Assembly: GCA_964420205.1 (NCBI GenBank)
Contig: CAYQSO010000002.1
Location: 7,765-71,764, forward strand
Source of the DNA: an uncultured Candidatus Saccharibacteria bacterium
GTDB lineage: Bacteria > Patescibacteriota > Minisyncoccia > UBA6257 > JAGOQP01
Reading direction: 5' to 3'
Length of the DNA: 64,000 nucleotides
Below the pieces are notes generated by a model, which ran no database searches, was not told the DNA's origin, and was given only the letters and a program-made list of their open reading frames with translations. Below are positions 3,042 to 54,810 of the stretch, one piece after another. Each line of letters opens with the position of its first letter. Position 1 is the first letter of the stretch. The position numbers were made by a program, and so were the translations under genes.

Positions 3042-3380
3042 CTATAAGTACATAATTGCAAGATAATTTATTAAGAGATGTGCTGTATTGTCTCTAATGA
3101 TATTTATCCAAACTATCAACCAAACTGGTCTATCAGATTTATTACTATTAAAATAGTTTATTATATTATCTATATACTCACCAAATTTAATATGATCTAT
3201 TATAGCATGCGATAAACATATAACGAGCAAAGCTAATGAACTTTGTGTAATAAGTAAAAATGGTAAGATATATGTCGCAGCATGTTGTAATGCTAATCCG
3301 AAATTCTCTTTTTTACCAAGTGCCTGCCTATCTGTTTGTAGCCAATAGTCACCTATCAAATGAGCTATTAATTGCTCCAT
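3042..3380 (-). CDS. small integral membrane protein
   Basis: Three hydrophobic helices (YILPFLLITQSSLALLVICL, VWLIVWINII, LLINYLAIMYL); overlaps the QueC-like gene by 32 nt. Confidence 0.4.
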   Translation of the reverse strand: MEQLIAHLIGDYWLQTDRQALGKKENFGLALQHAATYILPFLLITQSSLALLVICLSHAIIDHIKFGEYIDNIINYFNSNKSDRPVWLIVWINIIRDNTAHLLINYLAIMYL

Positions 3381-4050
3381 CTCTTAATTCCTTTTCATAC
3401 TTTGCTAATTTATACGTTATACATGGGGTGCACTTCCCACACTCTATTATTTCTTTATTATCTAAAACAGGTTCTTCACACCACCAACAAAAATCTAAAA
3501 GACCTTCCTCTTCTAATTTATTTATTATCTCCAATTTCCTTTTAAGTGATAAAGGGAGCCTCCAAAGAGTACCTGAACACCCCACCATACGAAATGAATT
3601 ATTAATTATACTTTCTAATTCACTATAAGTATACCATATAGAATCATTATATATATAACCTAAATAAATACTGGTATTATCATCAATAAATGATAGTATA
3701 TTTGAAAACCAATAAAAAAATTGTAACCCTGAAGTAGTTCCTTGTTCTACCCAATTAATTTTAGGTAGTTTTAAATCTATTTTAACTTTAGCATAATTTA
3801 CATTATAACCTAAACTTTTTAAATACTTTTTAAACTTTTTTCTACTTTCTTCTTCTTTTTTTATCTTCTCTGATCTTAATCCCCAAAATTCCACAGAGAC
3901 ACAATTAATAGAATGCCCCTCTTTCTTACCATACTTCTTACAAAGTTCATACAATAATAAAGTAGAATCACACCCACCCGACCAAAGCAATAAGTGTTTT
4001 GTATGACCTGACTCAGGGTAATCTCCCAGATAGAAATAATTTTCTTCCAC
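3349..4050 (-). CDS. queC: QueC-like PP-loop ATPase (7-cyano-7-deazaguanine synthase family)
   Basis: PP-loop SGGxDS (LLLWSGGCDSTLLL) near the N-terminus and a QueC-type C-terminal zinc motif C..C...CGKCTPC (compare B. subtilis CGECPACHLR). 233 aa. Confidence 0.55.
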   Translation of the reverse strand: MEENYFYLGDYPESGHTKHLLLWSGGCDSTLLLYELCKKYGKKEGHSINCVSVEFWGLRSEKIKKEEESRKKFKKYLKSLGYNVNYAKVKIDLKLPKINWVEQGTTSGLQFFYWFSNILSFIDDNTSIYLGYIYNDSIWYTYSELESIINNSFRMVGCSGTLWRLPLSLKRKLEIINKLEEEGLLDFCWWCEEPVLDNKEIIECGKCTPCITYKLAKYEKELRDGAINSSFDR

Positions 4051-4678: not shown

Positions 4679-5572
4679 TCAACTACTTTTTAAAATATAT
4701 TTCCTAACATCTACTAACAATTTTTCTAAATTTACATGTTCATAGATTCCTGAAGTAGAAAGAGCATTAATTTCTACTACTGCTTCGCACAGGTCACTGC
4801 CACTTGCCCAATAACAAACATCTATAGTGAAGCAATCTAAATCTATATTATGTATAATTTCTTCTACGTTTTCAAAAGTAGATTTAAATGGCTTTGGATC
4901 TATTGCAACAGTATTGTTTACATATAATGAATAAGTAGAAATCTTCTTACCTACTATATAAAACCTGTATTCATACATTATTTCTTTTTCAGTAGATAAA
5001 ACAAGAATTGTATCTTTACTTACTCTAAGGTTATTTAATTTCATCTTCATATCAAATGGACCAAAAGCAACAAATGATTCAAAAATCTTATCGCCTCTAT
5101 CTGGTTTTACAAAAATCCCATTTTTATGTTTCTTAGTATGGGATAGAATACGATCATAATCATGATAAAACTGCTCATAAAAATCCCCCATTAAAGTCCA
5201 CGCTGGTACAAATAAACAATCTTTATTTAATAAAAATTGTTTAAGAATATTGTAATACCTGCTTACGTTATAAAACTCATCAAAACCATAAAATAAAAAA
5301 TTATACCTCTTACCAATACTAGGATAATTTTCAAAATCTATATGTTCTGTAAGCTTTCTAATATTTTGAATACTTGTAAAACCTGTATACAACTGATCTT
5401 TTTTAATGCTAGGGAATTGGTATCTTAAATTATTTGGGCTACTAAAACAAGTTTGCATATCATAAACTTGTCTACTTTTATCACCAAAAGATTTTATTAT
5501 TTGTTTAACTTCCTTAAACTGTTCTTTAGATGAAAATATTATATCTTGTAAAAACCATGTAATCTTAGACAT
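4679..5572 (-). CDS. ATP-grasp family protein
   Basis: C-terminal CEAVVEINALSTSG resembles the ATP-grasp E-x-N/Mg motif; GIFVKPDRGDKIFESF resembles the ATP-grasp lysine loop. 297 aa. Confidence 0.4.
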   Translation of the reverse strand: MSKITWFLQDIIFSSKEQFKEVKQIIKSFGDKSRQVYDMQTCFSSPNNLRYQFPSIKKDQLYTGFTSIQNIRKLTEHIDFENYPSIGKRYNFLFYGFDEFYNVSRYYNILKQFLLNKDCLFVPAWTLMGDFYEQFYHDYDRILSHTKKHKNGIFVKPDRGDKIFESFVAFGPFDMKMKLNNLRVSKDTILVLSTEKEIMYEYRFYIVGKKISTYSLYVNNTVAIDPKPFKSTFENVEEIIHNIDLDCFTIDVCYWASGSDLCEAVVEINALSTSGIYEHVNLEKLLVDVRKYILKSS

Positions 5573-5891
5573 TACTATTTTCCACTATTTAATATTACTA
5601 TAAATTAAAACACAGGTTAAAAGACTTGAACTCTTACTAAACGGGTTGGAGCCGTTTGTGCTACCGATTACACCAAACCTGCAAAATAAAACAGTAGTTT
5701 TTCATCAATACGGAACTATAAAACTACCAAAAATAGTCAGCGATTCTTTAACTAGTATTATTCGCTTAGGAACTTTGTTCAAAGTCTTAACAACCTTTAT
5801 CTTGTTAAGCACTTATCTAGAACAGGGAGAAACACTACCGTCTATTAATATTATAATAGCAAATTAAATATACTATGTCAAGCCTAAATTT

Positions 5892-6539
5892 TTAAAATTC
5901 TATCCCTTTTCTCGCAGGAATGGTTATTAACGTTGCCCCGCAATTAGGACAATAATTACTCCTATATTCAAAACTTCTTTTACAGACCTCACAATGCTTA
6001 TCGAAATAATGTTTAACACATCTAATGTCTGAAAATAAATCTGATATGTCTTTTATTTTATCATATAAAGAGTCTGACCATATCCTACCCGTTAAAACAA
6101 GCTCAAGATTAGATGGTTTTTCTCTTATAAAATCAAAAAACTGTTTCTGAGTAAGTAACCCAAGATTTAAAGCAGGTAATACTTCATCTAAAATCAAGAT
6201 ATTGAACGGGTGCTCATTATTTTCAGTGAGGGTTAGTTTTTCTACCATCAACGACCACGTATTTTGAACGAGCTCTTTATCTTCAGAAGTTTTATTATGT
6301 TCCATTACAATTCTATTAGAGTTATGAGACTGGATTATTGTTATTTTATCTTGGAAAAGACCACACGTCTTTATTTCACCATACTCTGTGTTGTCATCCC
6401 CTTTTAAAAATTGAACAATAAAAACTTTCCAATTTTTAGCTATTGACCGAAACGCAAGTCCAAAAGCACTAGTAGTCTTCCCTTTCCCTGAACCCGTATA
6501 GGTTTGTATGAACCCGTGATTTTTTAATTCATGTCCCAA
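5892..6539 (-). CDS. cobA: ATP:cob(I)alamin adenosyltransferase (CobA/BtuR/CobO family) with C-terminal zinc-ribbon extension
   Basis: TYTGSGKGKTTSAFGLAFRSI...VFIVQFLKG matches the CobA P-loop (TGNGKGKTTAAFG...VVQFIKG). ILILDEV and LVLTGR...VKHYFD match the remaining CobA blocks. An extra CEVCKRSF...CPNCG lies at the C-terminus. Confidence 0.8.
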   Translation of the reverse strand: MGHELKNHGFIQTYTGSGKGKTTSAFGLAFRSIAKNWKVFIVQFLKGDDNTEYGEIKTCGLFQDKITIIQSHNSNRIVMEHNKTSEDKELVQNTWSLMVEKLTLTENNEHPFNILILDEVLPALNLGLLTQKQFFDFIREKPSNLELVLTGRIWSDSLYDKIKDISDLFSDIRCVKHYFDKHCEVCKRSFEYRSNYCPNCGATLITIPARKGIEF

Positions 6540-6556
6540 AATCCATACCTACCTTT

Positions 6557-9500
6557 CTAACGTATGGGGCATACCCCATTTTCACAATCACTACCTAAAT
6601 CATCATCTAAATTATATTGTTTTTCATATTTAGCTATCAATTCGGGTGTTATTTTACCAAATTGTTTATTTAACTTATTATATTCTTCTTCTGTAATTGC
6701 TTCATAAGGGGCTAAAGGGTATTTAGCATCATACAAAGGTAAAAAAGATATTCCAACAAAATCATCCCAATTCTCATAAACCCAATCTATTACACCTGCC
6801 CATTCATTATCTCGAACAGTAACCGTGATAGATGTGTTATGGTCTGTGTAATTTCTCATGAACATTTTATAAGTTTCTAATTGTTCTATTGCACTAATAT
6901 CATATTTATTTTTACCTTCGGGTGACTTTACATAAAAATCTATTACATTAGTATCACAAGTTTCAGGGTCCTGTCCTACTTCAGGTGATATATTATATCC
7001 CAATTCTTCTGCTACTTTTAATAAAGGGTCCCCTGAATTAATTCGCACTCTTCTAATATAGTAAGGGGAGTGTGAATGATGAACACCCGGAGATATAGTG
7101 GGAAGTAAACTAAGTGTTCCAGAAGGTTTAATTGTAGTGACTAACTTAGGGGTATTTCTTCCTAGGGAATTTGCTATTTTAGTTGCTTCCGTACGTGCTG
7201 TTTCTCTTAGGAGTTTTAAAATAGATACTTGGTTCTCTTCCGACTTATCGTAGAGTAAATTCACTGCGTCTTGCCACCCACTTAAAGCTACCCCTAGTAA
7301 CATATGTTCTTCTTGGACTTTTTTCCATTCTGGTAACTCAATATTTACACAAGCCATTCTATACGAAGCACGTGTAAACGTCCTAACAGCATTTAATATT
7401 TCTTCATTAAGCTCCCCATCTTTTACAAAAGATTTTACATTAATCTCTACTAAATTACAAAATCCTTTAGAAGGTAAAAGTATCTCACAATTATGAACCA
7501 TAAAACCATTTACTATGCCCCAATGAGATAAAGGTTCTTCGAAATCAAAAACATCATGCTCCCCTATATGAGAAATATCTTCTATCGTAACAGTATTATA
7601 GTCACGTATTGAATCATTTTTCTTACAGTAAGACTGAAAAATCAAGCATTTACCTTTTAAATCCTTTGCTTTGCAATTTGAACCATCCTCAAGCATAAAA
7701 ATATGGTCTTCTGTACATTTTATAATTCTATTATTAGACATTTTTAACCTAATACAAGGTTTACGACCAGTAAACCAAACTTTGCCTTGTGATATATTTC
7801 CATCAGCATTTATTATATCTATTTGCTTCTCATTCAGTTCTTTAAAAGTTTTATAACCTTTTGATGTCAATAATTTCATATCCCCCGTAAAACAACAGGG
7901 ATTTAGCCCTTCCATAGTAGGGAGTCTACGTTGAGCCTCTTGTTTATTAATAAAGCCAGGTTCACCTGTAGTTTTTATACTGTTAAATATTTCTACCAAC
8001 TCTTCTTTCGACGGTCTTTTATTGAATAGAATACTATTGTTGCTCGATACCCTATGTGTTTTGTTTGGGTCAGATACCCACGCACCATCTTCATTTTGAT
8101 AGTAAATACCTTGTTTAGCCAGTCTCACGTCTTCATCGTCTTTATCAAATAAACAAACTAATGCAGTCCTTCTTACACCCCCAACCTGAACTGCGCATCC
8201 TACTAAATTACATATATCTAAAATGTCTATAGTTTTTAAACTACCATTAGACCTACTTACAATACCTATAATTTTCTCAAACAATATTTTAAGGGGGACA
8301 TGCCCACTTGCATAACCACCAAAAGTTTTTAAGGGGGCGCCTTCAGGTCTAACATTATCGAAGTCTACTAATATAGTAGATAATAGAGGGTTCTCTAAAC
8401 ATTTGAACAAGTACCTTAAGGCACCTACCCAACCCTCCTTAGAATCCCCTACAACAATAGTAGCGACGTTACCTGTGGTTTGTAATGTACTAAACTCTTC
8501 TTTATCTATTTTTTCAGAATATTCTTTAGATAATATTCTAATACTTGTATTTAAATTAGAAAAAGCACTAATATTTTCTATTACATCTAAAAAACCAACC
8601 CCACAACCTAATAAGAGGAGATAAAATAACTCACAGATATCTTCTGTATTATCTATTTTTGTAAAAGAACAATTTTTAGTCAATATATTATTCGCCAGAG
8701 TAAATGATTCTGTTTCTGGTTCAACAACACACCAAACATCTTCTATAATATCTGTTTCTTCTACACCTTTCACAACCCACGAAGGTTCAAAACTTGTTTC
8801 TTTTACACTTGACTTATGTTTACTATTCAAAAAGAAATCATCTGGTACATGTTTTGAATATAAATTCAATCTATAATTCGGAGCGTATTCTCCAGTATAC
8901 GGTGAAAGTTCTCTATTTAATTCAACTTTTCCACAATCAATACCTAATATAGAAAATATACTTTTAATATGGTCTAATGTGTTTTTATTAGAATTACTTA
9001 TTGAGATATTACTCTTGTAATAAGACCCATCTGTGGCAAATAAGCCCATCACAAACCCCATTAAATATTCCACATTAGAGTTCAGAGATGGGAGATTTTT
9101 CCATGTATTTGGTAGGCCATATATCACTTTCTGGTTATATTTTCCAGCGGTACATTGAGACCCTGTTGTAAAATATAATGCAAGTTCCTGCTTATTATCT
9201 ACTAAATGAACCCTACAATGGTTCATTTTTTTATTATATGTCCCATCTCCAAAAACCATACCATGTTGTATCCCAACAGAACACGGAACTATATTAGTTT
9301 GTTCATATCTTCTTTTCTCTCTCAAAATATCGCCATTTTTTAACTCATTAGTAGTCTTAACAATAAATTTTTTCTCAGACTTGTACCTTTTTACATACCA
9401 CCTATGATTTTCTGTAGTGTAAATAATATCTTCTCTTTTACCTCTACCAACAATCAACTTTACCAATTTAGACTTTCCGAAATTTCTAATAGTAGCAGTT

Positions 9501-9928
9501 TTCCACCCACCAGTAGAGGATAATATATCTACGTTATCACCATCACTAAAATCATTAAATGACTTTATTCCTTGCTTTGTTATAAATTCTGTATCTGATT
9601 TAAAACAGTTAAAATTACTAGAGGCATATTTTTTAGAGCTCTCTGTTCCACCTACCCATAATGTTCTGCCGCTTAAAAATCCTTTAAGGTTAAATATCGT
9701 ATCAAATAATTGCTCTGCTTCTCTTATAGAAACTCCATGAACTAACGAACAATTATATTCTACTGCTCTCCTAACTGTCTCCCACCAATACTCTCTTCTA
9801 TTTTGTTCTGGTAAATATCTTGAATAAGTTCTATAATAAACAAACTCTCCCAATGAAGTCATCGGTGGATTCACATCTTTATATTTACTTATAAATTCTT
9901 CACTTAATAACATTAATTTATGCCTCAC
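6557..9928 (-). CDS. nrdJ: adenosylcobalamin-dependent class II ribonucleotide reductase precursor, interrupted by two inteins
   Basis: N-terminal EFVYYRTYSRYLPEQNRREYWWETVRR is the class II RNR signature; NPC...EI thiyl-radical site; 1123 aa. About 450 aa is accounted for by two Hint/intein insertions. Confidence 0.85.
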   Translation of the reverse strand: MRHKLMLLSEEFISKYKDVNPPMTSLGEFVYYRTYSRYLPEQNRREYWWETVRRAVEYNCSLVHGVSIREAEQLFDTIFNLKGFLSGRTLWVGGTESSKKYASSNFNCFKSDTEFITKQGIKSFNDFSDGDNVDILSSTGGWKTATIRNFGKSKLVKLIVGRGKREDIIYTTENHRWYVKRYKSEKKFIVKTTNELKNGDILREKRRYEQTNIVPCSVGIQHGMVFGDGTYNKKMNHCRVHLVDNKQELALYFTTGSQCTAGKYNQKVIYGLPNTWKNLPSLNSNVEYLMGFVMGLFATDGSYYKSNISISNSNKNTLDHIKSIFSILGIDCGKVELNRELSPYTGEYAPNYRLNLYSKHVPDDFFLNSKHKSSVKETSFEPSWVVKGVEETDIIEDVWCVVEPETESFTLANNILTKNCSFTKIDNTEDICELFYLLLLGCGVGFLDVIENISAFSNLNTSIRILSKEYSEKIDKEEFSTLQTTGNVATIVVGDSKEGWVGALRYLFKCLENPLLSTILVDFDNVRPEGAPLKTFGGYASGHVPLKILFEKIIGIVSRSNGSLKTIDILDICNLVGCAVQVGGVRRTALVCLFDKDDEDVRLAKQGIYYQNEDGAWVSDPNKTHRVSSNNSILFNKRPSKEELVEIFNSIKTTGEPGFINKQEAQRRLPTMEGLNPCCFTGDMKLLTSKGYKTFKELNEKQIDIINADGNISQGKVWFTGRKPCIRLKMSNNRIIKCTEDHIFMLEDGSNCKAKDLKGKCLIFQSYCKKNDSIRDYNTVTIEDISHIGEHDVFDFEEPLSHWGIVNGFMVHNCEILLPSKGFCNLVEINVKSFVKDGELNEEILNAVRTFTRASYRMACVNIELPEWKKVQEEHMLLGVALSGWQDAVNLLYDKSEENQVSILKLLRETARTEATKIANSLGRNTPKLVTTIKPSGTLSLLPTISPGVHHSHSPYYIRRVRINSGDPLLKVAEELGYNISPEVGQDPETCDTNVIDFYVKSPEGKNKYDISAIEQLETYKMFMRNYTDHNTSITVTVRDNEWAGVIDWVYENWDDFVGISFLPLYDAKYPLAPYEAITEEEYNKLNKQFGKITPELIAKYEKQYNLDDDLGSDCENGVCPIR
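7490..7894 (-). mobile_element. intein 2 in nrdJ (about 135-aa mini-intein at the NPC active site)
   Basis: NPC|CFTGDMKLL...GFMVHN|CEILLP: N-terminal Cys, C-terminal HN, +1 Cys, and no endonuclease domain. Coordinates by residue counting (aa 679..813). Confidence 0.6.
8672..9607 (-). mobile_element. intein 1 in nrdJ (about 312 aa, LAGLIDADG homing-endonuclease type)
   Basis: Starts with Cys right after NFN (CFKSDTEF...) and ends ...ILTKN before the CSF extein. LAGLIDADG-like blocks HGMVFGDGTY and LMGFVMGLFATDGSY. Coordinates come from residue counting (aa 108..419). Confidence 0.65.
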
Positions 9929-9945
9929 TTAACTAATAAACTCAA

Positions 9946-9974
9946 TTAAAAAATTGCTGTACCTTGAACAGCAA
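9946..9974 (-). terminator. candidate rho-independent terminator on minus strand
   Basis: Stem ttgctgt/acagcaa (9954..9974) with a 7-nt loop; the plus-strand A6 run at 9948..9953 gives a T-run after the hairpin on the minus strand. Confidence 0.35.
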
Positions 9975-10061
9975 CGAAACCCATTTTAATACACAATTAT
10001 CTTAAGAATCTTCGCTTATTTTCTCTTCTAGACTCCCCATAAAAATTCTTACTAACTATAT

Positions 10062-10413: not shown

Positions 10414-10725
10414 CTACTTATATTTATATTTATCATCATATTCAGGGGGTTCATATCCTAAATCTTTTAAGTCTCCTAAATACATCCCCTTATACTTTTT
10501 TTCTACCTCTGGTTCTACATAATAAGAATACATCTTACATTTAGTTTTATAAAACTCGCTACCTTTAATTAGTACATTGTGTGTTTCCAATTCCTGTAAT
10601 AGAGGGCAATATGGAATACCACTTTCGTCCCTATCTTTAGTATTATTTACACATGTACTACACTTATCTAACGGAGATATTGAAAGCTCATACTTCTTAG
10701 TACTTTTATTATATACAACTTTCAT
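10414..10725 (-). CDS. hypothetical Cys-containing protein
   Basis: 103-aa ORF with CSTC...CPLL...C cysteines and a KYKYK tail. Confidence 0.3.
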   Translation of the reverse strand: MKVVYNKSTKKYELSISPLDKCSTCVNNTKDRDESGIPYCPLLQELETHNVLIKGSEFYKTKCKMYSYYVEPEVEKKYKGMYLGDLKDLGYEPPEYDDKYKYK

Positions 10726-11052: not shown

Positions 11053-11481
11053 TTAAACTAAACTACTAACTAAAAAGACCAAACTTGAAATTATTATACA
11101 AATATACACTACACATCTTAAAAATGTGAAGTATTTTTCAAAATTCTTATCCATATATTTCTTATATTGTTGTTTAGATTTTTTTAACCAGTACCCATCT
11201 ACACAAGTAAGAATTACTCCGGGAGCAACAAACATATAAGTACTAGAATCAAACAAATGTGTAGATACTGCTGAAGCTTTTCTCGGTTTATCCATACTTT
11301 GTAAAAAGAATAAATATATCCCCAAAGGGCAAAGTAAAAACAGTATTCGTAAAAATAGATCAATACTTTTGAAAATAACCTCTAATAAAAAGATAAAAAA
11401 TACTTTAGTATAATCTGCGCCAAGTCTGTTAGCTTTCGCAGATATTTTTTCTATTGCTTTTAATTTTAGTTTTTTTAGCAT
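11053..11481 (-). CDS. integral membrane protein
   Basis: Several hydrophobic helices (FFIFLLEVIF, ILFLLCPLGIYLFFL, ICIIISSLVFLVSSLV). Confidence 0.4.
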   Translation of the reverse strand: MLKKLKLKAIEKISAKANRLGADYTKVFFIFLLEVIFKSIDLFLRILFLLCPLGIYLFFLQSMDKPRKASAVSTHLFDSSTYMFVAPGVILTCVDGYWLKKSKQQYKKYMDKNFEKYFTFLRCVVYICIIISSLVFLVSSLV

Positions 11482-11483
11482 AT

Positions 11484-11957
11484 TTACTTACCAGTACTTC
11501 CCCAACCACCGTCACTTCTAATTGTTTCAGAAATCTCATCCACCTCTCTTATTCCCGCTCTACAATATTGCACAATAACCATCTGTGCTATTCTCTCATT
11601 AGGTTGAATAGTATAAGGTTCTTTAGATAGATTAATTAACGGAACACCCACAATACCACGAAAATCTGAATCCAATGTTCCTATACAATTGACAAGTGTT
11701 ATTCCGTGTTTTATTGATAGCCCTGAGCGAGGTCTTATCTGAGCTTCAGTCCCTTCCGGTAATTCTACTATTAATCCTGTGGGGATAATTCTTCTTTCAA
11801 ACGGTTGCAGTGTTATAGGTTCTTTTATACAAGCACTCAAATCCATTCCCGAAGAACCTATTGTTTTATACTCAGGTATTATTGCATTTGGGTCTGCTTT
11901 TTTAATATTAACTTCTGTAATTTTATTTGAACAATTACACATCATCTCTTTTTCCAC
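11484..11957 (-). CDS. dut: dUTP diphosphatase (dUTPase)
   Basis: All five dUTPase motifs are present: GSSGMDL, RPRSGLS, GTLDSDFRGIVGV and the C-terminal RSDGGWGSTGK (motif V). 157 aa. Confidence 0.85.
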   Translation of the reverse strand: MEKEMMCNCSNKITEVNIKKADPNAIIPEYKTIGSSGMDLSACIKEPITLQPFERRIIPTGLIVELPEGTEAQIRPRSGLSIKHGITLVNCIGTLDSDFRGIVGVPLINLSKEPYTIQPNERIAQMVIVQYCRAGIREVDEISETIRSDGGWGSTGK

Positions 11958-11977
11958 CTCTCAATATAAATTATAAT

Positions 11978-12382
11978 TTAACTTTTTTCGAACTTCTCTT
12001 TCAATTCAAGGTACTTTTTATAATCTTCTTCATCTTTCTTTTGGTTAACAATCTTATGTCTATCCAAGCGTTCTTTCTGTTTCTTTTTATAAGATTCTTT
12101 TATTTCTTCTATATAAGACTGTAAAGCATTTTCATCCCAAATAAATTCTTCTTTGAATTTTTTATAAGTATTATCACCACACTCTACAAAAACCTCTCGA
12201 TTACTTATCTCGTACTCCGACTCTTCTACTAAGAAAGCCTCCATGTCATAAGCGTAATCCCAGTCATCAAAAATACTGTATACCACATCAAGTTCTATTA
12301 GAGTATTCCCGATGTCACAAATTCGCTGTTTTATTTTATTTTCCTGTTTTCTAAACTCATAGTATTCTTCTTTTGTAATCAT
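11978..12382 (-). CDS. hypothetical acidic protein
   Basis: 134-aa Glu/Asp/Lys-rich ORF with no diagnostic motif. Confidence 0.3.
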   Translation of the reverse strand: MITKEEYYEFRKQENKIKQRICDIGNTLIELDVVYSIFDDWDYAYDMEAFLVEESEYEISNREVFVECGDNTYKKFKEEFIWDENALQSYIEEIKESYKKKQKERLDRHKIVNQKKDEEDYKKYLELKEKFEKS

Positions 12383-12591
12383 CTACTCTGGTACCCCATC
12401 ATCTTAGACAAACAACTTAAACAAATTTTATCGTGGTACGCTGAACATGTCATATTTACCTTCTTCTTACCACATACACCACATTTTTCACCAAATAAAA
12501 AATCTTTTACAGGCTCTAAAAACTTATGTATTCTATACGTCCAATGAAAACGTACTTTACACGGATAAATTGTATAATCTTCTCGTTTCAT
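12379..12591 (-). CDS. hypothetical zinc-ribbon protein
   Basis: CGVCGKK...C..C..C; 70 aa; starts only 34 nt downstream of the tnpB stop. Confidence 0.3.
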   Translation of the reverse strand: MKREDYTIYPCKVRFHWTYRIHKFLEPVKDFLFGEKCGVCGKKKVNMTCSAYHDKICLSCLSKMMGYQSR

Positions 12592-12625
12592 TATCTTCTG
12601 CTCCGTAATTTGTATTCAAACATAA

Positions 12626-13960
12626 TCATTCTAAAACAATTACATTTGAAGTTACTAATTCGCTTTTTCTTGCTTCATTGTACTCTCTTTTGTTGTTGCT
12701 TGCAACAACTACTTGAGTTTGTTTTAACACTCCACAAGCTTTACTAACTCTAACAGAATTAAAGTTAGTTCCCGACAAGCCATCGGTACATGTATTCCTT
12801 ACTTCATTAAGTAGGATATAATCTTTACAGTTCTTGAGATTAACTGCTGCATTGTAGTCTCTTTGGTGCTCTGCACCACAATTACTACATTTCCAGTTTC
12901 TATCTTTTAATTTTAGTTCTTTATTCTTCTCTCCACAGCTACTACATAACTTACTACTTGGAAAGAATTTATTTACTTCTCTTACTTCTATATTATGTTT
13001 TGTACACTTCTGTACAAGAACTTGTTTAAAATAGTAAGGTTTATTTTGAAGAATAGTTTTAGAAAGATGTTTGTTCCTAACCATTCCTTTAATATTTAAG
13101 TTTTCAACTGTAACATATCTAGGTTTCCCCTTAACTATGTTATCTATACATTTATTAGTATAAGAGTTTCTTATTTGTTCTAACCTGTAGTACACTTTTT
13201 CTACTCTTAGTTTATTTTTAATATAATTGTTACTTACTTTATCTCTCTTTTCTTTCTTCTTAGCTTCGTACTTTCTACTTAAAGCTCTCTGTTCTCTTCT
13301 TAATTTCTTTTCTAACTTTTTAACTCTAGTAGTTTTATTAATGTTTTTGTATTCTTCTTTGTTAGAACATGTTAAGAAAGTACTTATTCCCCAATCAATA
13401 CCAATACCTTCATTACAATTCTTATTATCTTTACTACTCTCTTCATCTGTTATAACAGAGATGAAATATCTATTAGATCTCTTAGTTATTACTCCACTTA
13501 TTATTTTATTGTTTCCTGTAGGGAGGTATCCTTTCTCTTTCAGAGAAACCTCTCCGAACATAGGAATTTTAATTTTATGCCTAGAACATCTTATAGGTCT
13601 GTTTGCCTCTACTCTAACAAAATAAACTCCTGTCTTGTCTTTAGAAGCTTTTTTAAATTTAGGAAATCCTTTCTTTGATTTAAATGCTTTTTGGTAAGTT
13701 GAATTACAATTATCTATAGTCTTTCTAAGAGCTTTACTCCCTGCTTCTTTCAACCAATGTTTATCTTCGTTCTCTTTTAAATAAACATTATTAAACCATT
13801 TAGAGAACTCGTAGTTATTAAGATATTTTTCTCCTGCGGAGTAACGTTCTTTATTAACAGAAATAAAAAGATTCCAGACAAATCTACATGCAGAAATTGT
13901 AAGCTTGTAAAGCTTCTCCTGTTCTTTATTTAGTTTTACTTCTGTCTTGTAAGCTTTCAT
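12626..13960 (-). CDS. tnpB: TnpB (IS200/IS605-family OrfB; OMEGA RNA-guided RuvC nuclease), copy 1
   Basis: Canonical MKAYKTEVKLNKEQEKL N-terminus, C-terminal zinc finger CSSCGEKN...CSNCGAEHQRDYNAAVNL (RuvC-III). The track ORF extends to 14086, but Met43 at 13958..13960 is the likely start, judged by alignment to copy 2. Confidence 0.85.
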   Translation of the reverse strand: MKAYKTEVKLNKEQEKLYKLTISACRFVWNLFISVNKERYSAGEKYLNNYEFSKWFNNVYLKENEDKHWLKEAGSKALRKTIDNCNSTYQKAFKSKKGFPKFKKASKDKTGVYFVRVEANRPIRCSRHKIKIPMFGEVSLKEKGYLPTGNNKIISGVITKRSNRYFISVITDEESSKDNKNCNEGIGIDWGISTFLTCSNKEEYKNINKTTRVKKLEKKLRREQRALSRKYEAKKKEKRDKVSNNYIKNKLRVEKVYYRLEQIRNSYTNKCIDNIVKGKPRYVTVENLNIKGMVRNKHLSKTILQNKPYYFKQVLVQKCTKHNIEVREVNKFFPSSKLCSSCGEKNKELKLKDRNWKCSNCGAEHQRDYNAAVNLKNCKDYILLNEVRNTCTDGLSGTNFNSVRVSKACGVLKQTQVVVASNNKREYNEARKSELVTSNVIVLE

Positions 13961-13993
13961 TGATAAAAAGAAAAGTTCTAAGAAATTATTTTG

Positions 13994-14057
13994 TAAGCAG
14001 ATACAATTCTTCCTAGAACTAAAATTAATATAAATCTTATTTAATTGTATCTGCTTA
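13994..14057. repeat. perfect 15-bp inverted repeat (taagcagatacaatt / aattgtatctgctta) with 34-nt spacer in the presumed IS left end
   Basis: Read directly from sequence (13994..14008 and 14043..14057); lies between the real tnpB start and the over-extended track start. Confidence 0.7.
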
Positions 14058-14175
14058 ATATTATAATTTAACTTAAAATTTTTCATTTAGATTTCCCTGT
14101 AAAGGTATTAAAAATGAATATGTTTTACATATATTTGATTATGTTATGGGAGACTGTTCATTATCTTCTCTCCTC

Positions 14176-38353: not shown

Positions 38354-41300
38354 TTAGAGCGGTTTCGGTATTAAAGTAGTACGTGATTCATCATCTACCC
38401 ATTTAAAATCGAATATTTGTCCAAAACGATACCCCAGTCCAATTGTAGCTTTAATAGGCAAAGGCCAATCTGGTAAGCTAAAATACATTATATCTTCTAT
38501 TAACCTAGTGTATTCTACTATTTTATCTAAATCAACATAAAGGTTCACTTCGTCATGTATTGTCGAAAGAAAAGCACACTCTTTTTCTTTTTCGGATATA
38601 CTAAATATTTTCTGATACATCTTCTTAAGAACTATACGCATAATATCCCCCGCACTTCCCTGGATTATGTGGCTGCTGACTCTTCTCTCAGCAGCAGATA
38701 TCATATTATTTGACTCTCTTTCACCTTTCCTAGGGTCTTCTGCTTCTCTTTCTATCCTCTCAGCCATATTTACATATGACCCGAAGCGTCTGGGCCTCCC
38801 ACAGAACGTAAATGTAGTTCCGGCATTATTCCACATCTTATTTATTTCATTTTGTCTCCATTGCATAGCCCCAAAAAAAGCTTCACAATAGGCATCATAA
38901 AGAGCTGTTGCGTGTTCTAACGGGATTCCAGAATTCTTAGATATGGAATCAGAATGACCACTATAATTTATAGCAAAATTCACAGCCTTTGCTATTTTTC
39001 GTAGCCCCTTGTTATAATTTTCTCTACCCCATATAGCGTACGCTGTCGCAGTATGTGGATCAATACCTTCCCTGAAATTTGATAACTTTACACTATCTTT
39101 ACTGTAATTAGTAAGGAGAACGTCTTCCTGTGAACTGTAATCCACACTCAAAATAATCTTTTTCTTACTATTAACCTTTTTAAATGATGGAACTACTACA
39201 CAATTTCTAATATTAAAATTAGGGGAGAACCCTTCTACTAAATAACAGTCTTCTGAGTCAGTGTGGTTTTTAATGTCTTCATCAGACATTAAATCAAAAC
39301 ACCAACCTAATATATTACCCTCTTTCTCAGATTTGTATGCTTTATAAATCGCTCCTGACGGTTTACTAAGATTCTGCGCATTAAGATCTATATAATAGGG
39401 GTTCTTAGTCTTCTTATCACTCTTACTCCCATTACCACTTGCAAATCTCCCTGAAGCGGTCCCAAAAAGTTTATATCTCATCCTACACTCATCTACCTTA
39501 GTCAGTTTATCAATGTAACTATTGATAGCCTTATTCATAGTAGAGTACTTCTGTATCTTCTTTAAAATACTTAACTTTTCATTTTCTTTTTTAAGCATTA
39601 TTTTTAATATTTTTAAAAAATATTTTCTATTGAGAATTCTACTTCCTTTTTTAAGCGGAACTAGTTTCTTATTTTTATTCTTTCTTTTCGCTCTGCTCAA
39701 TACTCTTATAGTATTGTTATTCAACTGCATTACTTGGAAATAGTCACTCCCATGTGCTTCTAGTATTTTATATAAATAAAACATATCTACGTGTTCTCTT
39801 ATATGTAATTCTGAAGCACAAAATCCTTTTGTAAAATAACCTTCTTCATTCTTTTCTAATTTTTCTATAATACCTCGTAAATCTGTTAAATTCTTAGAAA
39901 ATATTCTTGTACCATCTTTTTTACCAAAAGAAATCTGATCTGTATCTGTCCTTGCCCCAGTATCTATATTCTTAGATGCCATAGCATTTTTAAACTCTTT
40001 AGAAGAGGTACTAAGGTTGAATATTCCTATATCAAAATAATTATATATTTCCTCCTTAAGCTGAGTTATTACTTCGATAGCTTTTTCTTTATATTTTTTA
40101 GCTTCTTCTTTATCTATATAAAGTTTAGTATGTCCATAATAATCAATCCAATACCTTATAAGAGTGTTGTCTGATTTTATAACGTCAAATTTTTTACCGT
40201 TAAACTCTACTATATTGGGGTAAGTACTTATTAGTTTTTTAACTTTCGGATATAAATAGTAAAAAAGTGCCAAGCAGCAACATGAGTCTGCACAATTACC
40301 CGAAACCAAGACTTTACCATTTCTTCTAGTTATTAAAGTGTGATTTGGTACTTCTGCACAATAAACCACCCCACTATATGGAACAATTTCTCTCTGGTAT
40401 TTCTTGTATCTAACACTTTTCTGTCTTTGTGTGTACACACTATAAATTTGGTGCACATTTTCTCTTTTTATTACACGTCCTCTAATAACACAGTCTTTTT
40501 TAGGTGGTGCTTTTAAAGTTAATATACTAGTCCTACCACCCAACATTAATAGCTCTTGTAACTGATTAGCCATTTTGATAGATGTAGTATAAAAAACCCA
40601 CGCTGAGTCAGTTTTTCTAGACCCATCACAATAATTAAAATATTTTAGAAACTCATTTATACAGTACGAATCCATTTTAAAAATTTCAGGTGGAATATAC
40701 TTTTTCTGAGCCTTACCTTCCATATAAGGTTTTATCCAATTATAAAACTTTTTATTATAACAAACCCAGCTATTCCCTTTTTCTCTTTTGTTAGGGCGAA
40801 ACCCCATATTAGTTTCCATTAACATATTTTCTAACTCTTTTTTGAATTTATCGCTACAAACAGCCAGCCCTATGTGATAACAAACTTGCTTGTCGCCTCT
40901 TTGAACAATCCAACCATCTGCCAACAACGCACCTGTTAATCTGGCTAATTGTACAGGGGTTAAATTAACATTCTTACTAAAATGAAAAGAATCCTTCCCA
41001 CTACCTTTCTTCTCTGTGGGAGCTTTATAACCGCTTTCTTCAACTAAAAGATCTTTTGCCTGTTTGAATACCCATTCTTTATGTTGTGCTCGCTTAACTA
41101 GCATATTATGGTTGGGGGTAACACAAAAATCAAGATGTTTACTTTTATAAGAAATCATCTCTCCTTTATATTCATACGCATATAACCTTAGAGGACGCTG
41201 GTACTCTAATTCATCTTTTTCCACATTTACAGTAGCTAAAAGGTCTTCTCCATTATAATCTTTCCACATTACCCAACCATTTTCAGTCAATACTTCAGTC

Positions 41301-42319
41301 TGATCATCGTGGCATGCATAAATAACTGTGCTCCTATCGTAGGGGCATACATACTTGAATTCACCCGGAAATTCTAACATAGTACGTCCTAGATACAATT
41401 TAGCACTTAACTTAAGTCCTGCCATTTTTGACTCCGCATCAAAAAGATACGGAAGTATCATAGAGTCAAAAAAGTTAACTTTTTCAATAGAATAACCTTC
41501 TTTCTTATACATATTAAGGTCAAATTCAGCATTATGGATTACTACTAACTTTGCACTTGTTAAAGCTTTATATAAAATATCAAGGGACTTTTTTGCACTT
41601 CTCTCATTTTCTTCTTCTGTTAAAACATAACTAGAAACTTCCATTTCAGATAAATGCTTTTCAAAGTCTCCTATCATACAGTCTATACTACCAAGTTTAG
41701 CTTCTACTACTTCTTTTTCTAAATCTTTAGAATTTTCAAGAAAGTTTTCTTTATCTTGTTTTAACCCATCTATTAATTTTTGCGTCTCTTCTCTTTGTCT
41801 CTGTAATTCTAATTGCTCCCTTACTTCTTTGCTACATATATTTCCATTATGTAATGAATACTCATACGTCTTTACCGTAGTCTGACTTACTCTTCCTGTT
41901 TTAGTATATACTACATTTCCTTCTTCATCTAATTTAGGAACTTTTTCTGAACCCACTTCTTTTTTTCGCATATGTCTCAAAGGGCAATAAATCCCCGAAT
42001 TGTCGTCCAGTGAAAGAGAGAACCCTACAATGTAATCACCACCTTCTTCTCGAGGTGAACTGTTCAGTCCAGTAGTTTCAGTGTCAAACCCGATTATCTT
42101 ATCTTTACAAAGTTCTACGAATTCTTCCAACTCTTCTAAAGTATTAACAAGTTTATAGTCCCCTAAATAAATAAGATTCCCTTCCTCATCGTATTTATGA
42201 AACTTATTATCAAACTCTCTATAACCATGTACAGGTATATATTTGTACAACGTTTTACTGCTTTTTTTCTTTTGTTCTACCTTTTGTTGAACATATTTTT
42301 TCTTATAATCTTTTGTCAT
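38354..42319 (-). CDS. family A DNA polymerase (3'-5' exo plus polymerase domains) precursor containing an intein
   Basis: Exo I IGFDTETTGL; polymerase motif A LSVDYSSQE, motif B RKIAKAVNFAINYS, motif C LSTIHDEVN. The likely true start is MTKDYKK, 12 codons inside the track ORF (which begins at 42355). Confidence 0.85.
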   Translation of the reverse strand: MTKDYKKKYVQQKVEQKKKSSKTLYKYIPVHGYREFDNKFHKYDEEGNLIYLGDYKLVNTLEELEEFVELCKDKIIGFDTETTGLNSSPREEGGDYIVGFSLSLDDNSGIYCPLRHMRKKEVGSEKVPKLDEEGNVVYTKTGRVSQTTVKTYEYSLHNGNICSKEVREQLELQRQREETQKLIDGLKQDKENFLENSKDLEKEVVEAKLGSIDCMIGDFEKHLSEMEVSSYVLTEEENERSAKKSLDILYKALTSAKLVVIHNAEFDLNMYKKEGYSIEKVNFFDSMILPYLFDAESKMAGLKLSAKLYLGRTMLEFPGEFKYVCPYDRSTVIYACHDDQTEVLTENGWVMWKDYNGEDLLATVNVEKDELEYQRPLRLYAYEYKGEMISYKSKHLDFCVTPNHNMLVKRAQHKEWVFKQAKDLLVEESGYKAPTEKKGSGKDSFHFSKNVNLTPVQLARLTGALLADGWIVQRGDKQVCYHIGLAVCSDKFKKELENMLMETNMGFRPNKREKGNSWVCYNKKFYNWIKPYMEGKAQKKYIPPEIFKMDSYCINEFLKYFNYCDGSRKTDSAWVFYTTSIKMANQLQELLMLGGRTSILTLKAPPKKDCVIRGRVIKRENVHQIYSVYTQRQKSVRYKKYQREIVPYSGVVYCAEVPNHTLITRRNGKVLVSGNCADSCCCLALFYYLYPKVKKLISTYPNIVEFNGKKFDVIKSDNTLIRYWIDYYGHTKLYIDKEEAKKYKEKAIEVITQLKEEIYNYFDIGIFNLSTSSKEFKNAMASKNIDTGARTDTDQISFGKKDGTRIFSKNLTDLRGIIEKLEKNEEGYFTKGFCASELHIREHVDMFYLYKILEAHGSDYFQVMQLNNNTIRVLSRAKRKNKNKKLVPLKKGSRILNRKYFLKILKIMLKKENEKLSILKKIQKYSTMNKAINSYIDKLTKVDECRMRYKLFGTASGRFASGNGSKSDKKTKNPYYIDLNAQNLSKPSGAIYKAYKSEKEGNILGWCFDLMSDEDIKNHTDSEDCYLVEGFSPNFNIRNCVVVPSFKKVNSKKKIILSVDYSSQEDVLLTNYSKDSVKLSNFREGIDPHTATAYAIWGRENYNKGLRKIAKAVNFAINYSGHSDSISKNSGIPLEHATALYDAYCEAFFGAMQWRQNEINKMWNNAGTTFTFCGRPRRFGSYVNMAERIEREAEDPRKGERESNNMISAAERRVSSHIIQGSAGDIMRIVLKKMYQKIFSISEKEKECAFLSTIHDEVNLYVDLDKIVEYTRLIEDIMYFSLPDWPLPIKATIGLGYRFGQIFDFKWVDDESRTTLIPKPL
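40295..41314 (-). mobile_element. intein in DNA polymerase (about 340 aa, LAGLIDADG type) inserted in the Exo III motif (YA|C..D)
   Basis: VIYA|CHDDQTEVLTENGW...LARLTGALLADGW...FLKYFNYCDGS...VPNHTLITRRNGKVLVSGN|CADSCCCLALFYYL; the extein junction restores the Y-x-x-x-D exo motif. Coordinates by residue counting (aa 348..687). Confidence 0.6.
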
Positions 42320-42644
42320 TATTAAAATTAACTCCTGTACTAGATAAACCAACATTAGTGAAATTAAAATCTTTGTACTTCCACCAATCTTTTTTCTTCA
42401 TCATCTTTTTAACTTTTCTTGGGTACTTATCCCACCTACAGTACTTCCCGATACCTAATATGTAATTAAATATTATTAATTTTACTCTATTTTCTATATT
42501 AGTTTGAATTTCTCCCACACATTCGCCATAGGGCTCTCTTACAGCAGAAGTAGCAGTATCTCTTGACTCACATAAATATTGAGACGATATTCCTGTTGCC
42601 ATAACAATGTCTTGTCTTAATTTATATAATCTCTCTTCTATCAT
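42303..42644 (-). CDS. hypothetical protein
   Basis: 113-aa ORF upstream of the polymerase. Confidence 0.3.
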   Translation of the reverse strand: MIEERLYKLRQDIVMATGISSQYLCESRDTATSAVREPYGECVGEIQTNIENRVKLIIFNYILGIGKYCRWDKYPRKVKKMMKKKDWWKYKDFNFTNVGLSSTGVNFNNDKRL

Positions 42645-53339: not shown

Positions 53340-54810
53340 TATTGTTCTCCTTACCTATTGACTTTTAATCTGTTGAACTAAAGACTCTATATACAAATCA
53401 AACTGCTCCAAATTAGTAACTTTAAACATAATTTATCCTACTTGAAGTTACTAATTCGCTTTTTCTTGCTTCTCCAGTATACCTGTTAGGTATACAATCG
53501 TACTCTCTTTTATCACCAGAGGCGACTACTTGAGTTTGTTTTAACACTCCACAAGCGTTAATTCCCGACAAGCCATCGGTATTTACACTATTTAACAATG
53601 TGTATTCTTTACAATTCTTAAGGTTTACTGCTGCATTGTAGTCTCTCTGGTGCTCTGCACCACAACTACTACATTTCCAGTTCCTATCTTTTAATCTTAA
53701 CATATTATTTTTAGTATTACAAATACTACATAATTTAGATGAAGGGTAAAATCTACCTACTTCTCTTACTTCTATATTATGTTTAGTACACTTTTGTGTT
53801 AGAGTTTGTTTAAAGTAATAAGGTTTATTTTGTAGGGTAGCTTTACTTAGATGTCTGTTTTTAACCATTCCTTTTACATTAAGGTTCTCAATAGAAACAA
53901 ATTTAGGTTTCTTCCTAACTATATCATCAATACACTTATTAATGTAGGAATTTCTTATTTGTTCTAACCTATAATGAAGTTTAGAAACTTTATCTTTATT
54001 CTTTATATAATTGTTAGAAACTCTATCTCTTTTCTCTTTTTTCTTGGCCTCGTACTTCCTATTTAAAGCTCTCTGTTGTCTTTTAAGATTTTTTTCTAGC
54101 TTCTTAATCTTAGTAGTCTTATTAATATTTTCGTAACTAGTACTATTAGAACATGTCAAATATGTACTAATCCCCCAGTCAGCACCAATTCCTTCATTAC
54201 AATTCCTGTAATCTCTCGTACTCTCCTCGTATACTATAACAGAGATAAAATACTTACTAGCTCTCTTAGTTATTGCTCCACTTATTATTTTATTAGACTC
54301 TATAGGAAGATATCCTTTTTCTTTTATGTGTATCTCTCCAAACATAGGAACTTTTATCTTGTGTCTCTCACATTTAATAGGTTTATCTAAAGATGCTCTT
54401 ACAAAATATACCCCTGTCTTATCAGTAGAAGCTTTTTTAAATTTAGGAAATCCTTTCTTCTCCTCCATAAATTTAACATAAGTATTATCACAATTCATCA
54501 TTGTCTTCCTAAGAGCTTTACTTCCAGCTTCCTTTAACCACTGTTTATCTTCATTCTCTTTGAGATACTCATTATTGAACCATTTACTAAAGTTGTAGTT
54601 ATTAAGATATTTTTCTCCTACGGAGTATCTTTCTTTATTAACAGAGATAAACAAATTCCAGACAAACCTACAAGCTGAAGTAGTAAGCTTGTAAAGCTTT
54701 TCCTGTTCCTTATTTAATTTTATCTCTGTTCTATAAGCTTTCATTAATGGGACTGTTCTATCTTTTATACTCATCAAATGTGTAAAATAATGTTATTAAA
54801 ATTTAATTTA
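53340..54810 (-). mobile_element. second TnpA-less IS605-family element (boundaries approximate)
   Basis: tnpB copy 2 with a 10-bp inverted repeat aattagtaac/gttactaatt flanking its stop codon (53411..53456) and a 3' flank partly shared with copy 1 (aaacataat). Confidence 0.45.
53422..54744 (-). CDS. tnpB: TnpB (IS200/IS605-family OrfB; OMEGA RNA-guided nuclease), copy 2
   Basis: MKAYRTEIKLNKEQEKLYKLTTSACRFVWNLF N-terminus; CSICNTKNN...CSSCGAEHQRDYNAAVNL C-terminus. Roughly 70 percent identical to copy 1 by eye. The track start at 54777 is 11 codons upstream of the canonical MKAY start. Confidence 0.85.
   Translation of the reverse strand: MKAYRTEIKLNKEQEKLYKLTTSACRFVWNLFISVNKERYSVGEKYLNNYNFSKWFNNEYLKENEDKQWLKEAGSKALRKTMMNCDNTYVKFMEEKKGFPKFKKASTDKTGVYFVRASLDKPIKCERHKIKVPMFGEIHIKEKGYLPIESNKIISGAITKRASKYFISVIVYEESTRDYRNCNEGIGADWGISTYLTCSNSTSYENINKTTKIKKLEKNLKRQQRALNRKYEAKKKEKRDRVSNNYIKNKDKVSKLHYRLEQIRNSYINKCIDDIVRKKPKFVSIENLNVKGMVKNRHLSKATLQNKPYYFKQTLTQKCTKHNIEVREVGRFYPSSKLCSICNTKNNMLRLKDRNWKCSSCGAEHQRDYNAAVNLKNCKEYTLLNSVNTDGLSGINACGVLKQTQVVASGDKREYDCIPNRYTGEARKSELVTSSRINYV

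Follow-up and report, generated by a model that had tools for sequence, protein, structure and literature searches.

Can a phage whose ribonucleotide reductase (RNR) depends on vitamin B12 make the active form of that cofactor for itself? The question is raised by a 64-kb stretch of contig CAYQSO010000002.1 (hereafter the window, meaning the whole 64,000 nucleotides analysed), in which nrdJ, encoding a class II RNR, is followed by a cobA-like gene for an adenosyltransferase of the CobA/BtuR family. The first-pass annotation, made from the letters of the window, had proposed that a phage here turns host cobalamin into the adenosylcobalamin (AdoCbl) its own reductase needs. By its gene content the window is phage DNA, with genes for replication and recombination (a family-A DNA polymerase, a DnaB-like helicase, RecA/UvsX-like and SbcCD-like proteins) and for ThyX, a dUTPase, a DNA methylase, tail and baseplate proteins and a CBASS inhibitor; it has about 30% G+C, a strongly negative GC skew and essentially all of its genes on the minus strand. 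We find that nrdJ and this cobA, a variant with a four-cysteine (Cys4) insertion, probably work as a module that supplies the cofactor when the phage makes its DNA precursors. That the phage would make AdoCbl for its own reductase has strong comparative support, as the same CobA variant stands behind two RNR subclasses and similar gene pairs occur in cells and on a plasmid.

The reductase and its inteins

The open reading frame (ORF) at 6557..9928 lies on the minus strand and had been correctly read as a class II RNR, and the motifs quoted for it are there (GEFVYYRTYSR at aa 27-37, and WWETVRR). The public gene call starts five codons later, at an ATG at 9913 (1118 aa), which is the likely real start. 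The translation matches RNR_Alpha (E 1.5e-26), RNR-II_ins_dom, Ribonuc_red_lgC, Intein_splicing and LAGLIDADG_3 in Pfam, and phrog_367 (E 3e-152) among the PHROGs. Unspliced, it barely passes the NCBIfam model of the ribonucleoside-triphosphate reductase (RTPR), TIGR02505 (341.1 bits, cutoff 340.05). After in silico splicing, with intein borders placed by their terminal motifs, the extein of 676 residues reaches 380.2 bits against the same 340.05, and residues 19-676 of 676 align in one stretch with profile positions 4-724.

The spliced protein keeps every residue compared with the Lactobacillus leichmannii RTPR (1L1L), namely C119, N406, C408, E410, C419, C731 and C736 (C420, N676, C678, E815, C824, C1115 and C1120 in precursor numbering). 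The two enzymes align from end to end, including the C-terminal half (a second stretch, 470-676) with its redox cysteine pair, and by this whole-length alignment the C-terminal determinants of an AdoCbl-binding reductase do not appear to be missing. They also share the dimer-mimic insertion domain (PF21995, 33.6 bits, cutoff 27). The C-terminus is a plain DCENGVCPIR and has no Cys-rich domain; NrdJm enzymes never carry one (PMC5704485). An ATP-cone, present in the nearest cellular RTPRs (Clostridia, 50-54% identity), is lacking as well; in this, and in being phage-borne, the enzyme resembles NrdJm of Thermus phage P74-26 (PMC6459318). It differs from the L. leichmannii and Thermus enzymes in its two inteins at active-site cysteines, and in having a cysteine for the glycine that follows the radical cysteine. 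On profile and residues, the ORF is identified as a monomeric class II RTPR with the full set of L. leichmannii catalytic residues.

The two inteins foreseen by the first-pass annotation lie at aa 108-419 and 679-813, and both bear the canonical marks (Cys1, block B TxxH, a C-terminal Asn and then a +1 Cys). Intein 1 has a predicted endonuclease domain with two LAGLIDADG motifs (GMVFGDGT and GLFATDGS; LAGLIDADG_3, 27.7 bits against 22.5) and ends in KN before the cysteine, with no penultimate His; its +1 Cys (aa 420) is the equivalent of C119. Intein 2, a mini-intein (TIGR01445, 39.9 bits, cutoff 24.5), follows directly on the equivalent of the thiyl-radical cysteine C408, that is C678, the last residue of the middle extein, and its +1 Cys (aa 814) stands where the L. 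leichmannii enzyme has G409. With both removed, the extein is collinear with intein-free homologues (NPCCEILLP; SNFNCSF), and the border of intein 2 is confirmed because its closest intein-free relatives read NPCCEILLP at that point. By sequence, each intein thus interrupts the RTPR at a catalytic cysteine, and the unspliced precursor should for that reason be inactive.

Inteins recur in related loci. A dimeric NrdJ in another phage locus (L015, 7213-9981) contains one clearly homologous to intein 2, with the common pattern CFTGxMxLLTSxGYKTFKEL...VFDFxEPLxxWGxVNGFxVxN; its insertion point is one residue nearer the N-terminus (NP|C against NPC|C), and it includes an endonuclease domain. Two RNR subclasses therefore bear related inteins at nearly identical positions in the active site. 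A cellular NrdJ (L125) contains an intein-sized insert. Two near-identical T4-like contigs, L009 and L010, encode an MJ0330_N-domain protein of 630 aa (11146-13038) and 953 aa (11146-14007), without and with an intein, and this is an intein polymorphism between closely related phages. In the window itself, the family-A DNA polymerase (1333 aa, 38354..42355, minus strand) matches unrelated PHROGs over about aa 345-715 (thymidylate synthase and PhoH-like annotations), which suggests another intein or inserted domain.

The adenosyltransferase and its four-cysteine insertion

As had been noted, cobA lies directly after nrdJ, beginning 17 nt past its stop. Its product matches the Pfam family CobA_CobO_BtuR (PF02572) over profile positions 2-165 of 172 (E 4.3e-41, 141.4 bits against 25.7), with no sign of a different P-loop family, and Salmonella enterica CobA in the PDB (1G5R/4HUT) by sequence at E 9e-12. 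No PHROG family was matched. An AlphaFold2 model built from 30 homologues (pLDDT 90.2, pTM 0.85) has S. enterica CobA as its top four Foldseek matches in the PDB (1G64, 4HUT, 1G5R; TM 0.73-0.86 by target length, E about 1e-10 to 1e-11), and the next folds, generic RecA/KaiC-like proteins, come about seven orders of magnitude behind (E about 1e-4). A weak fold match to thymidine kinase, which combines a P-loop with a zinc lasso (TM about 0.4-0.5), was treated as generic P-loop similarity.

Like S. enterica CobA and E. coli BtuR, the window protein has a RecA-like P-loop fold with GxGKGKTT, and it shares with the Salmonella enzyme the C-terminal RxGI(D/E)(Y/F). The family-invariant residues are kept (G16/G18/K19/K21, R31, D118/E119, T150-G151-R152 and H177); S. 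enterica has K41 in the P-loop, and R51, D127/E128, R161 and H182 as the equivalents of R31, D118/E119, R152 and H177. Across 30-34 homologues, with identity down to 37%, 14-17 positions are invariant, cysteines included. The two proteins are about 25% identical, and a 20-residue N-terminal helix region of the Salmonella enzyme is missing from the window CobA. Profile, modelled fold and invariant residues together identify the ORF at 5892..6539 as a CobA/BtuR-type adenosyltransferase.

The first-pass annotation had also described a C-terminal zinc-ribbon extension, CxxC...CxxC, foreign to E. coli BtuR. The motif is there and is not found in cellular CobA; its place was misjudged. The four cysteines (C183, C186, C197 and C200; CxxC-x10-CxxC with a CPxCG knuckle) belong to a 24-residue segment between the KHYF motif and the C-terminal R210-x-G212-I-E214-F, and as cellular CobAs end with the same RxGIEF motif, the element is an insertion and not a terminal extension. 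Among 34 group members, with identity down to 37%, C183, C186 and C197 are invariant and C200 is kept in at least 90%. AlphaFold2 predicts short beta-hairpins (pLDDT 85-89). We infer the metal, since zinc-ribbon profiles reach sub-threshold scores only (Zn_ribbon_15, 18.5 against 28.9; Zn_ribbon_6, 16.8 against 25; Zn_ribbon_3, a weak match in some Cys4-CobA relatives). Further peculiarities of the group are a 4-residue insertion with a conserved Trp after R152 (the R161 equivalent) and, as treated below, replacements at F91 and W93 of the Salmonella enzyme.

The insertion is rare. The CobA family counts 3,750 matching proteins in 1.84 billion representatives, and about 20 representatives carry it. 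We also scanned one genome per species for 185,579 prokaryotic species and examined the 80 best cobA loci: a single one has the insertion (L066, a 28-kb contig in a Clostridia metagenome-assembled genome, or MAG, which lacks a nearby RNR and otherwise matches the window weakly in one protein), and the remaining best cellular loci encode ordinary CobAs of about 170 aa. As judged from these searches, Cys4-CobA is a distinct small group found in phage-like contigs and essentially absent from the reference genomes.

The gene pair in phages, cells and a plasmid

If the two genes belong together, their relatives should show it, and in phages they do. Class II RNR genes directly precede three of the four nearest relatives of the window CobA (60-64% identity). 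In one locus (L012) Cys4-CobA lies directly 3' of an intein-free RTPR, in another (L015) 3' of the intein-bearing dimeric NrdJ mentioned above, and in a third (L016) the order is dimeric NrdJ, a 52-aa ORF and Cys4-CobA; the NrdJs of the last two score 633 and 690 bits against TIGR02504 (cutoff 400). Elsewhere the gene lies directly 3' of an RTPR (L017/18 and L019/20) or one small ORF away from it (L021/22). These last loci were sampled from the side of the reductase: three of three phage-type RTPRs (56-62% identical to that of the window) have a Cys4-CobA of 210-211 aa at their 3' end, on a phage backbone of another kind, in which a DnaE-type polymerase lies upstream. The same CobA variant is thus found behind two class II RNR subclasses at no fewer than seven independent phage loci.

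This recurrence bears on the least favourable explanation, that unrelated genes adjoin by chance or that cobA is a decaying, non-functional remnant. Its TTG start and the sub-cutoff NCBIfam scores given below are all that speaks for it. The ORF is intact and preceded by a Shine-Dalgarno-like site, the 14-17 invariant positions hold across the homologues, and the same neighbour turns up in seven phage loci, in genomes of roughly a hundred or more genes. The explanation is highly improbable, and recurrence and conservation, as read from the sequences, already contradict it.

Pairing is also found in cells. An RNR lies within 6 kb in 12 of the 80 best cellular cobA loci, mostly adjacent and co-directional, in Clostridia (L091, L093, L095, L115, L132), Calditrichota (L069, L112), Saccharibacteria/Patescibacteria MAGs (L104, L124, L125) and other Bacillota. 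The cellular pairs resemble the phage pair in that a class II RNR adjoins an ATP:corrinoid adenosyltransferase, but differ in that their CobAs are without the Cys4 insertion and all ten RNRs tested are NrdJ of the dimeric type, over the curated cutoff. In the genome-reduced Patescibacteria this suggests B12 salvage and adenosylation dedicated to the reductase.

A "nrdJ/cobA region" has been described on the Lactobacillus plantarum plasmid pMF1298-5 (PMC6722938). Its record shows an RTPR, a small ORF and an adenosyltransferase flanked by IS30 copies, the same order as in phage locus L021, but the adenosyltransferase is of the PduO type (PF01923, E 5e-52), with no significant similarity to the window CobA. 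Class II RNRs are therefore paired with two unrelated adenosyltransferase families, which points to function rather than shared descent, and a functional link between RNR and adenosyltransferase gains strong support from this recurrence in cellular genomes and on a plasmid. As the pairing exists outside phages, the concept itself is not a phage invention.

Deposited phages show little of it. The 4-kb nrdJ-cobA region has zero nucleotide-level matches among 50,697 deposited phage records, and of the 958 such records with an RTPR-type gene essentially none has a CobA. By tblastn, CobA was found in six records of this collection (three of cyanophage P-SS2 and three unverified fecal 'Bacteriophage sp.' scaffolds), with no Thermus phage record among the matches, and PduO-type matches were mostly short unannotated fragments labelled Listeria or Enterococcus phage. 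The 80 best IMG/VR loci for RTPR all lack an adenosyltransferase gene, be it of the CobA or the PduO type, within 4 kb. A sequence identical to that of the window is present in a public metagenome assembly, in contigs of up to 83 kb; the nrdJ and cobA proteins are without names in public records.

Thermus phages are described as dependent on host B12 synthesis. The closest precedent among phages is P-SS2, which also encodes a CobA/CobO-family adenosyltransferase and a class II RNR, but its CobO is a host-derived, two-domain protein of the cyanobacterial type, 345 aa long and without Cys4, and about 14 kb separate its gene from that of the RNR; Sullivan et al. (2009, PMC2784084) regarded its role as unclear, and a review ties cyanophage cob genes loosely to class II RNR. 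In the literature searched, which covered few subscription journals, we came upon neither an account of a phage RNR-CobA module nor one of a Cys4 subfamily of CobA. The phage Cys4-CobA subfamily thus appears undescribed so far, while the logic of combining RNR and adenosyltransferase is already known in cells.

Phages carry other helpers of their reductases, such as the T4 thioredoxin NrdC, NrdH, the flavodoxin NrdI (class Ib) and the activase NrdG (class III). Like these, Cys4-CobA is phage-borne, stands beside the reductase and would keep its cofactor or redox state competent; unlike them, and without homology to them, it would supply an organometallic cofactor instead of electrons or a glycyl radical.

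A further gene recurs in these neighbourhoods. The small Cys-rich ORF upstream of nrdJ (Table 1) has homologues adjoining CobA or RNR in five other phage loci (L003 7756-7998, L006 7755-8000, L014 9715-9960, L015 6948-7190 and L021 8092-8334). The family, of 80-103 aa and with no Pfam match, has an invariant D-x-C-x2..8-C...C-P-[LV] and usually a fourth Cys. Its members could be a third component of the module, as a metal or redox protein, or merely be syntenic. Recurrent ORFs of about 80 aa had been considered as redoxins; they have no Pfam match and fall into this Cys-rich family and one unrelated family.

Proposed cofactor supply, surroundings and meaning

We propose that the nrdJ product would splice out its two inteins to give the 676-aa monomeric RTPR, which would bind AdoCbl; Co-C homolysis would raise a thiyl radical on the C408 equivalent, and NTPs would be turned into dNTPs. 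The C-terminal CxxxxC pair would be re-reduced by a thioredoxin-type system of the host, no phage redoxin having been found in the window. The substrates of CobA would be non-adenosyl corrinoids of the host (hydroxo-, cyano-derived and methyl-cobalamin pools, possibly incomplete corrinoids), and probably also cob(II)alamin let go by inactivated reductase. After one-electron reduction to Co(I), CobA would move the 5'-deoxyadenosyl group of ATP onto the cobalt, yielding AdoCbl and triphosphate. What the phage would need from its host is then a corrin ring only, and not the capacity to adenosylate it. The part of the Cys4 insertion is the least certain step: most likely it would hold a structural metal, and it may form a lid or a docking surface near the C-terminal, corrinoid-facing end.

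Several observations weigh against this scheme. Among the best 25 of the 32 Pfam families matched by the 71 other ORFs of the window, we identified no protein by which the phage itself could supply the electron for reducing Co(II) to Co(I); the same comparison gave no further B12-pathway family, no other AdoCbl-dependent enzyme family and no strong match to thioredoxin, glutaredoxin or flavodoxin. No cobalamin riboswitch was found in the window with Rfam at the gathering threshold, where a tRNA-Trp and a RAGATH-18 RNA are the sole matches. Cys4-CobA also occurs with no RNR within 6-10 kb, in freshwater T4-like contigs (L003/L146-L150, L006, L009-11, L014) and in three further contigs (L065, with DnaB upstream, L151 and L157), and no class II RNR was found elsewhere in these T4-like phages, either among the top 120 RTPR and NrdJ homologues or in NrdJ and RTPR-profile scans of IMG/VR. 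As to the enzyme, the window CobA misses the NCBIfam equivalog cutoffs (TIGR00708, 96.8 against 167.75; PRK05986, 111.8 against 185) and is therefore a divergent member whose function these models do not certify as the same. At the positions of F91 and W93 of S. enterica CobA, two residues credited with the formation of four-coordinate cob(II)alamin, the window CobA has I77 and M79; throughout the Cys4 group the F91 position is I or V, where cellular relatives have F or Y. Finally, some Cys4-CobAs have non-canonical P-loops, GFGKFKTS, GFGKMKTS, GFAKFKTS, GDGKGTTT and GDGSGKTT (L017 8165-8797, L019 8070-8705, L021 8348-8983, P0020 and P0023).

The stand-alone genes might mean that CobA is a general auxiliary metabolic gene raising the AdoCbl pool of the host, to the benefit of host enzymes or of another need of the phage, with nrdJ as its neighbour through a shared early or nucleotide-metabolism block. 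They are found in several phage lineages within replication and recombination blocks (UvsX-like RecA, SbcCD-like, DnaB), the cobO of P-SS2 likewise lies far from its RNR, and virome surveys list viral cobA as a generic cofactor gene of this kind (PMC11183165). Where there is an upstream RNR, in the seven independent phage loci, it is of the B12-dependent class even if the subclass differs; cells, and a plasmid with a non-homologous adenosyltransferase, have the same pairing; and the window offers, among the families compared, no other AdoCbl-dependent client. We give this explanation a small chance.

The departures within the enzyme raise another alternative, that the Cys4 group has changed its function and become an ATP-dependent chaperone for loading or repairing the cofactor, or an iron (rubredoxin-like) redox module for the Co(II)-to-Co(I) step or for reductase turnover. 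The replaced F91/W93, the Trp-bearing insertion after R152 and the variable P-loops leave room for altered substrate handling or for a chaperone or redox role, and the odd P-loops, in which the Gly before the Lys or the Lys itself is replaced, put in question whether all members would bind ATP as CobA does. The Cys4 element with its CPxCG knuckle is highly conserved, and PduO-type adenosyltransferases pass AdoCbl directly to a client mutase (methylmalonyl-CoA mutase). The F91/W93 pair is a trait of the Salmonella enzyme and not of the whole family, because W93 varies among cellular members too. On the other hand, the window CobA has all the family-invariant ATP-binding and catalytic residues in a fold close to that of CobA. 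A CxxC-x10-CxxC pattern on short hairpins is found most typically in structural zinc ribbons, and the sub-threshold zinc-ribbon scores decide the metal neither way. A change of function seems to us improbable for the group.

One might speculate further that the Cys4 insertion makes CobA a self-contained factor for maturing the cofactor and delivering it to the viral reductase. In an iron version, a rubredoxin-like Cys4 centre would give the electron for the Co(II)-to-Co(I) step in place of host flavodoxin; in a docking version, a Cys4 finger would hand AdoCbl to RTPR or NrdJ and would re-adenosylate cob(II)alamin from damaged reductase. The small Cys-rich protein might then be the third component. 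We regard this extension of the cofactor-supply module as unlikely. We rejected the idea of kinship, or of a complementary role, between the Cys4 element and the Cys-rich domain at the C-terminus of dimeric NrdJ, because Cys4-CobA adjoins both RTPRs, which never have that domain, and NrdJs that keep their own.

The module and its flanks are laid out in Table 1. The sigma-70-like site in the 3' end of nrdJ may, by its consensus match, be an internal promoter. Upstream, there is no obvious promoter between the terminator-like hairpin and the nrdJ start.

Table 1. Features of the nrdJ-cobA locus and its flanks, in window coordinates
Feature	Position	Strand	Remarks
tRNA-Trp (CCA)	5610..5683	-	just 3' of cobA; ARAGORN; Rfam 58.7 bits
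extended sigma-70-type site, near-perfect, TTGACA-17-TATTAT with TG	5853..5881	-	cobA-tRNA spacer, before tRNA-Trp
cobA-like gene, Cys4-insertion variant	5892..6539	-	215 aa, TTG start; CobA/BtuR/CobO-type ATP:co(I)rrinoid adenosyltransferase (predicted)
Cys4 insertion, aa 183-206	5922..5993	-	24 residues, CEVC-x10-CPNC-GATLIT; not in cellular CobA
P-loop GSGKGKTT, aa 16-23	6471..6494	-	equals S. enterica CobA G36-T43
Shine-Dalgarno-like AAAGGTAGG	6548..6556	-	8 nt 5' of cobA TTG, within the 17-nt nrdJ-cobA spacer; read from sequence
nrdJ precursor ORF	6557..9928	-	1123 aa from GTG 9928; monomeric class II ribonucleoside-triphosphate reductase (predicted), two inteins
C-extein, aa 814-1123 and stop	6557..7489	-	E815 (=E410), C824 (=C419), redox pair C1115/C1120 (=C731/C736)
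sigma-70-like site TTGATA-18-TATAAT (11/12)	6611..6640	-	in nrdJ 3' end, about 70 nt 5' of cobA; consensus match
intein 2, aa 679-813	7490..7894	-	135-aa mini-intein; CFTGDMKLL start, TEDH block B, ...GFMVHN end
middle extein, aa 420-678	7895..8671	-	class II insertion ('dimer-mimic') domain; ends ...GLNPC
intein 1, aa 108-419	8672..9607	-	312 aa; CFKSDTEF start, TENH block B, ...LTKN end
N-extein, aa 1-107	9608..9928	-	RNR_Alpha; FVYYRTYSR and REYWWE motifs; ends ...SSNFN
terminator-like hairpin and T-run	9953..9975	-	about 20-35 nt 5' of nrdJ start
small Cys-rich ORF	10414..10725	-	103 aa, D-x-C-x2-C...C-P-L; homologues adjoin CobA or RNR in other phage loci

On the 3' side of the module, at 3042..4050 and 4679..5572 (minus strand), lie genes for a QueC-like PP-loop protein (phrog_1550, E 3e-19), a DUF3307 protein (a public gene call corresponding to window ORF 3042..3380) and an R2K-clade ATP-grasp protein (Pfam, E about 4e-9), which may be a nucleotide- or DNA-modification set. 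Two TnpB/IS605 OrfB-like genes are found further away (12626..14086 and 53422..54777, both minus strand; phrog_506, E 1e-94 and 2e-91). At its 3' end the first of them overlaps the RAGATH-18 RNA (12667..12738, minus strand; 64.7 bits against 44.9), which is the place expected of a TnpB guide RNA; a second copy was not reported at the gathering threshold.

We know of no dedicated helper for the delivery of AdoCbl to class II RNR, and a compact natural pair of a monomeric reductase and a small adenosyltransferase would be a system in which the making of AdoCbl and its delivery could be studied. The locus would also define a new CobA subfamily by its conserved, putatively metal-binding insertion, and the nrdJ-cobA pairs of genome-reduced Patescibacteria would follow the same salvage logic where B12 synthesis is impossible. 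RTPR-carrying viruses are abundant in aquatic systems. They have been assumed to need hosts that make B12 or modify it into a usable form (PMC10547690). If our reading is true, a virus-encoded adenosyltransferase would relax this constraint, so that possession of a corrin ring would suffice in a host, and would change the view of how B12 availability shapes the host range and ecology of RTPR viruses.

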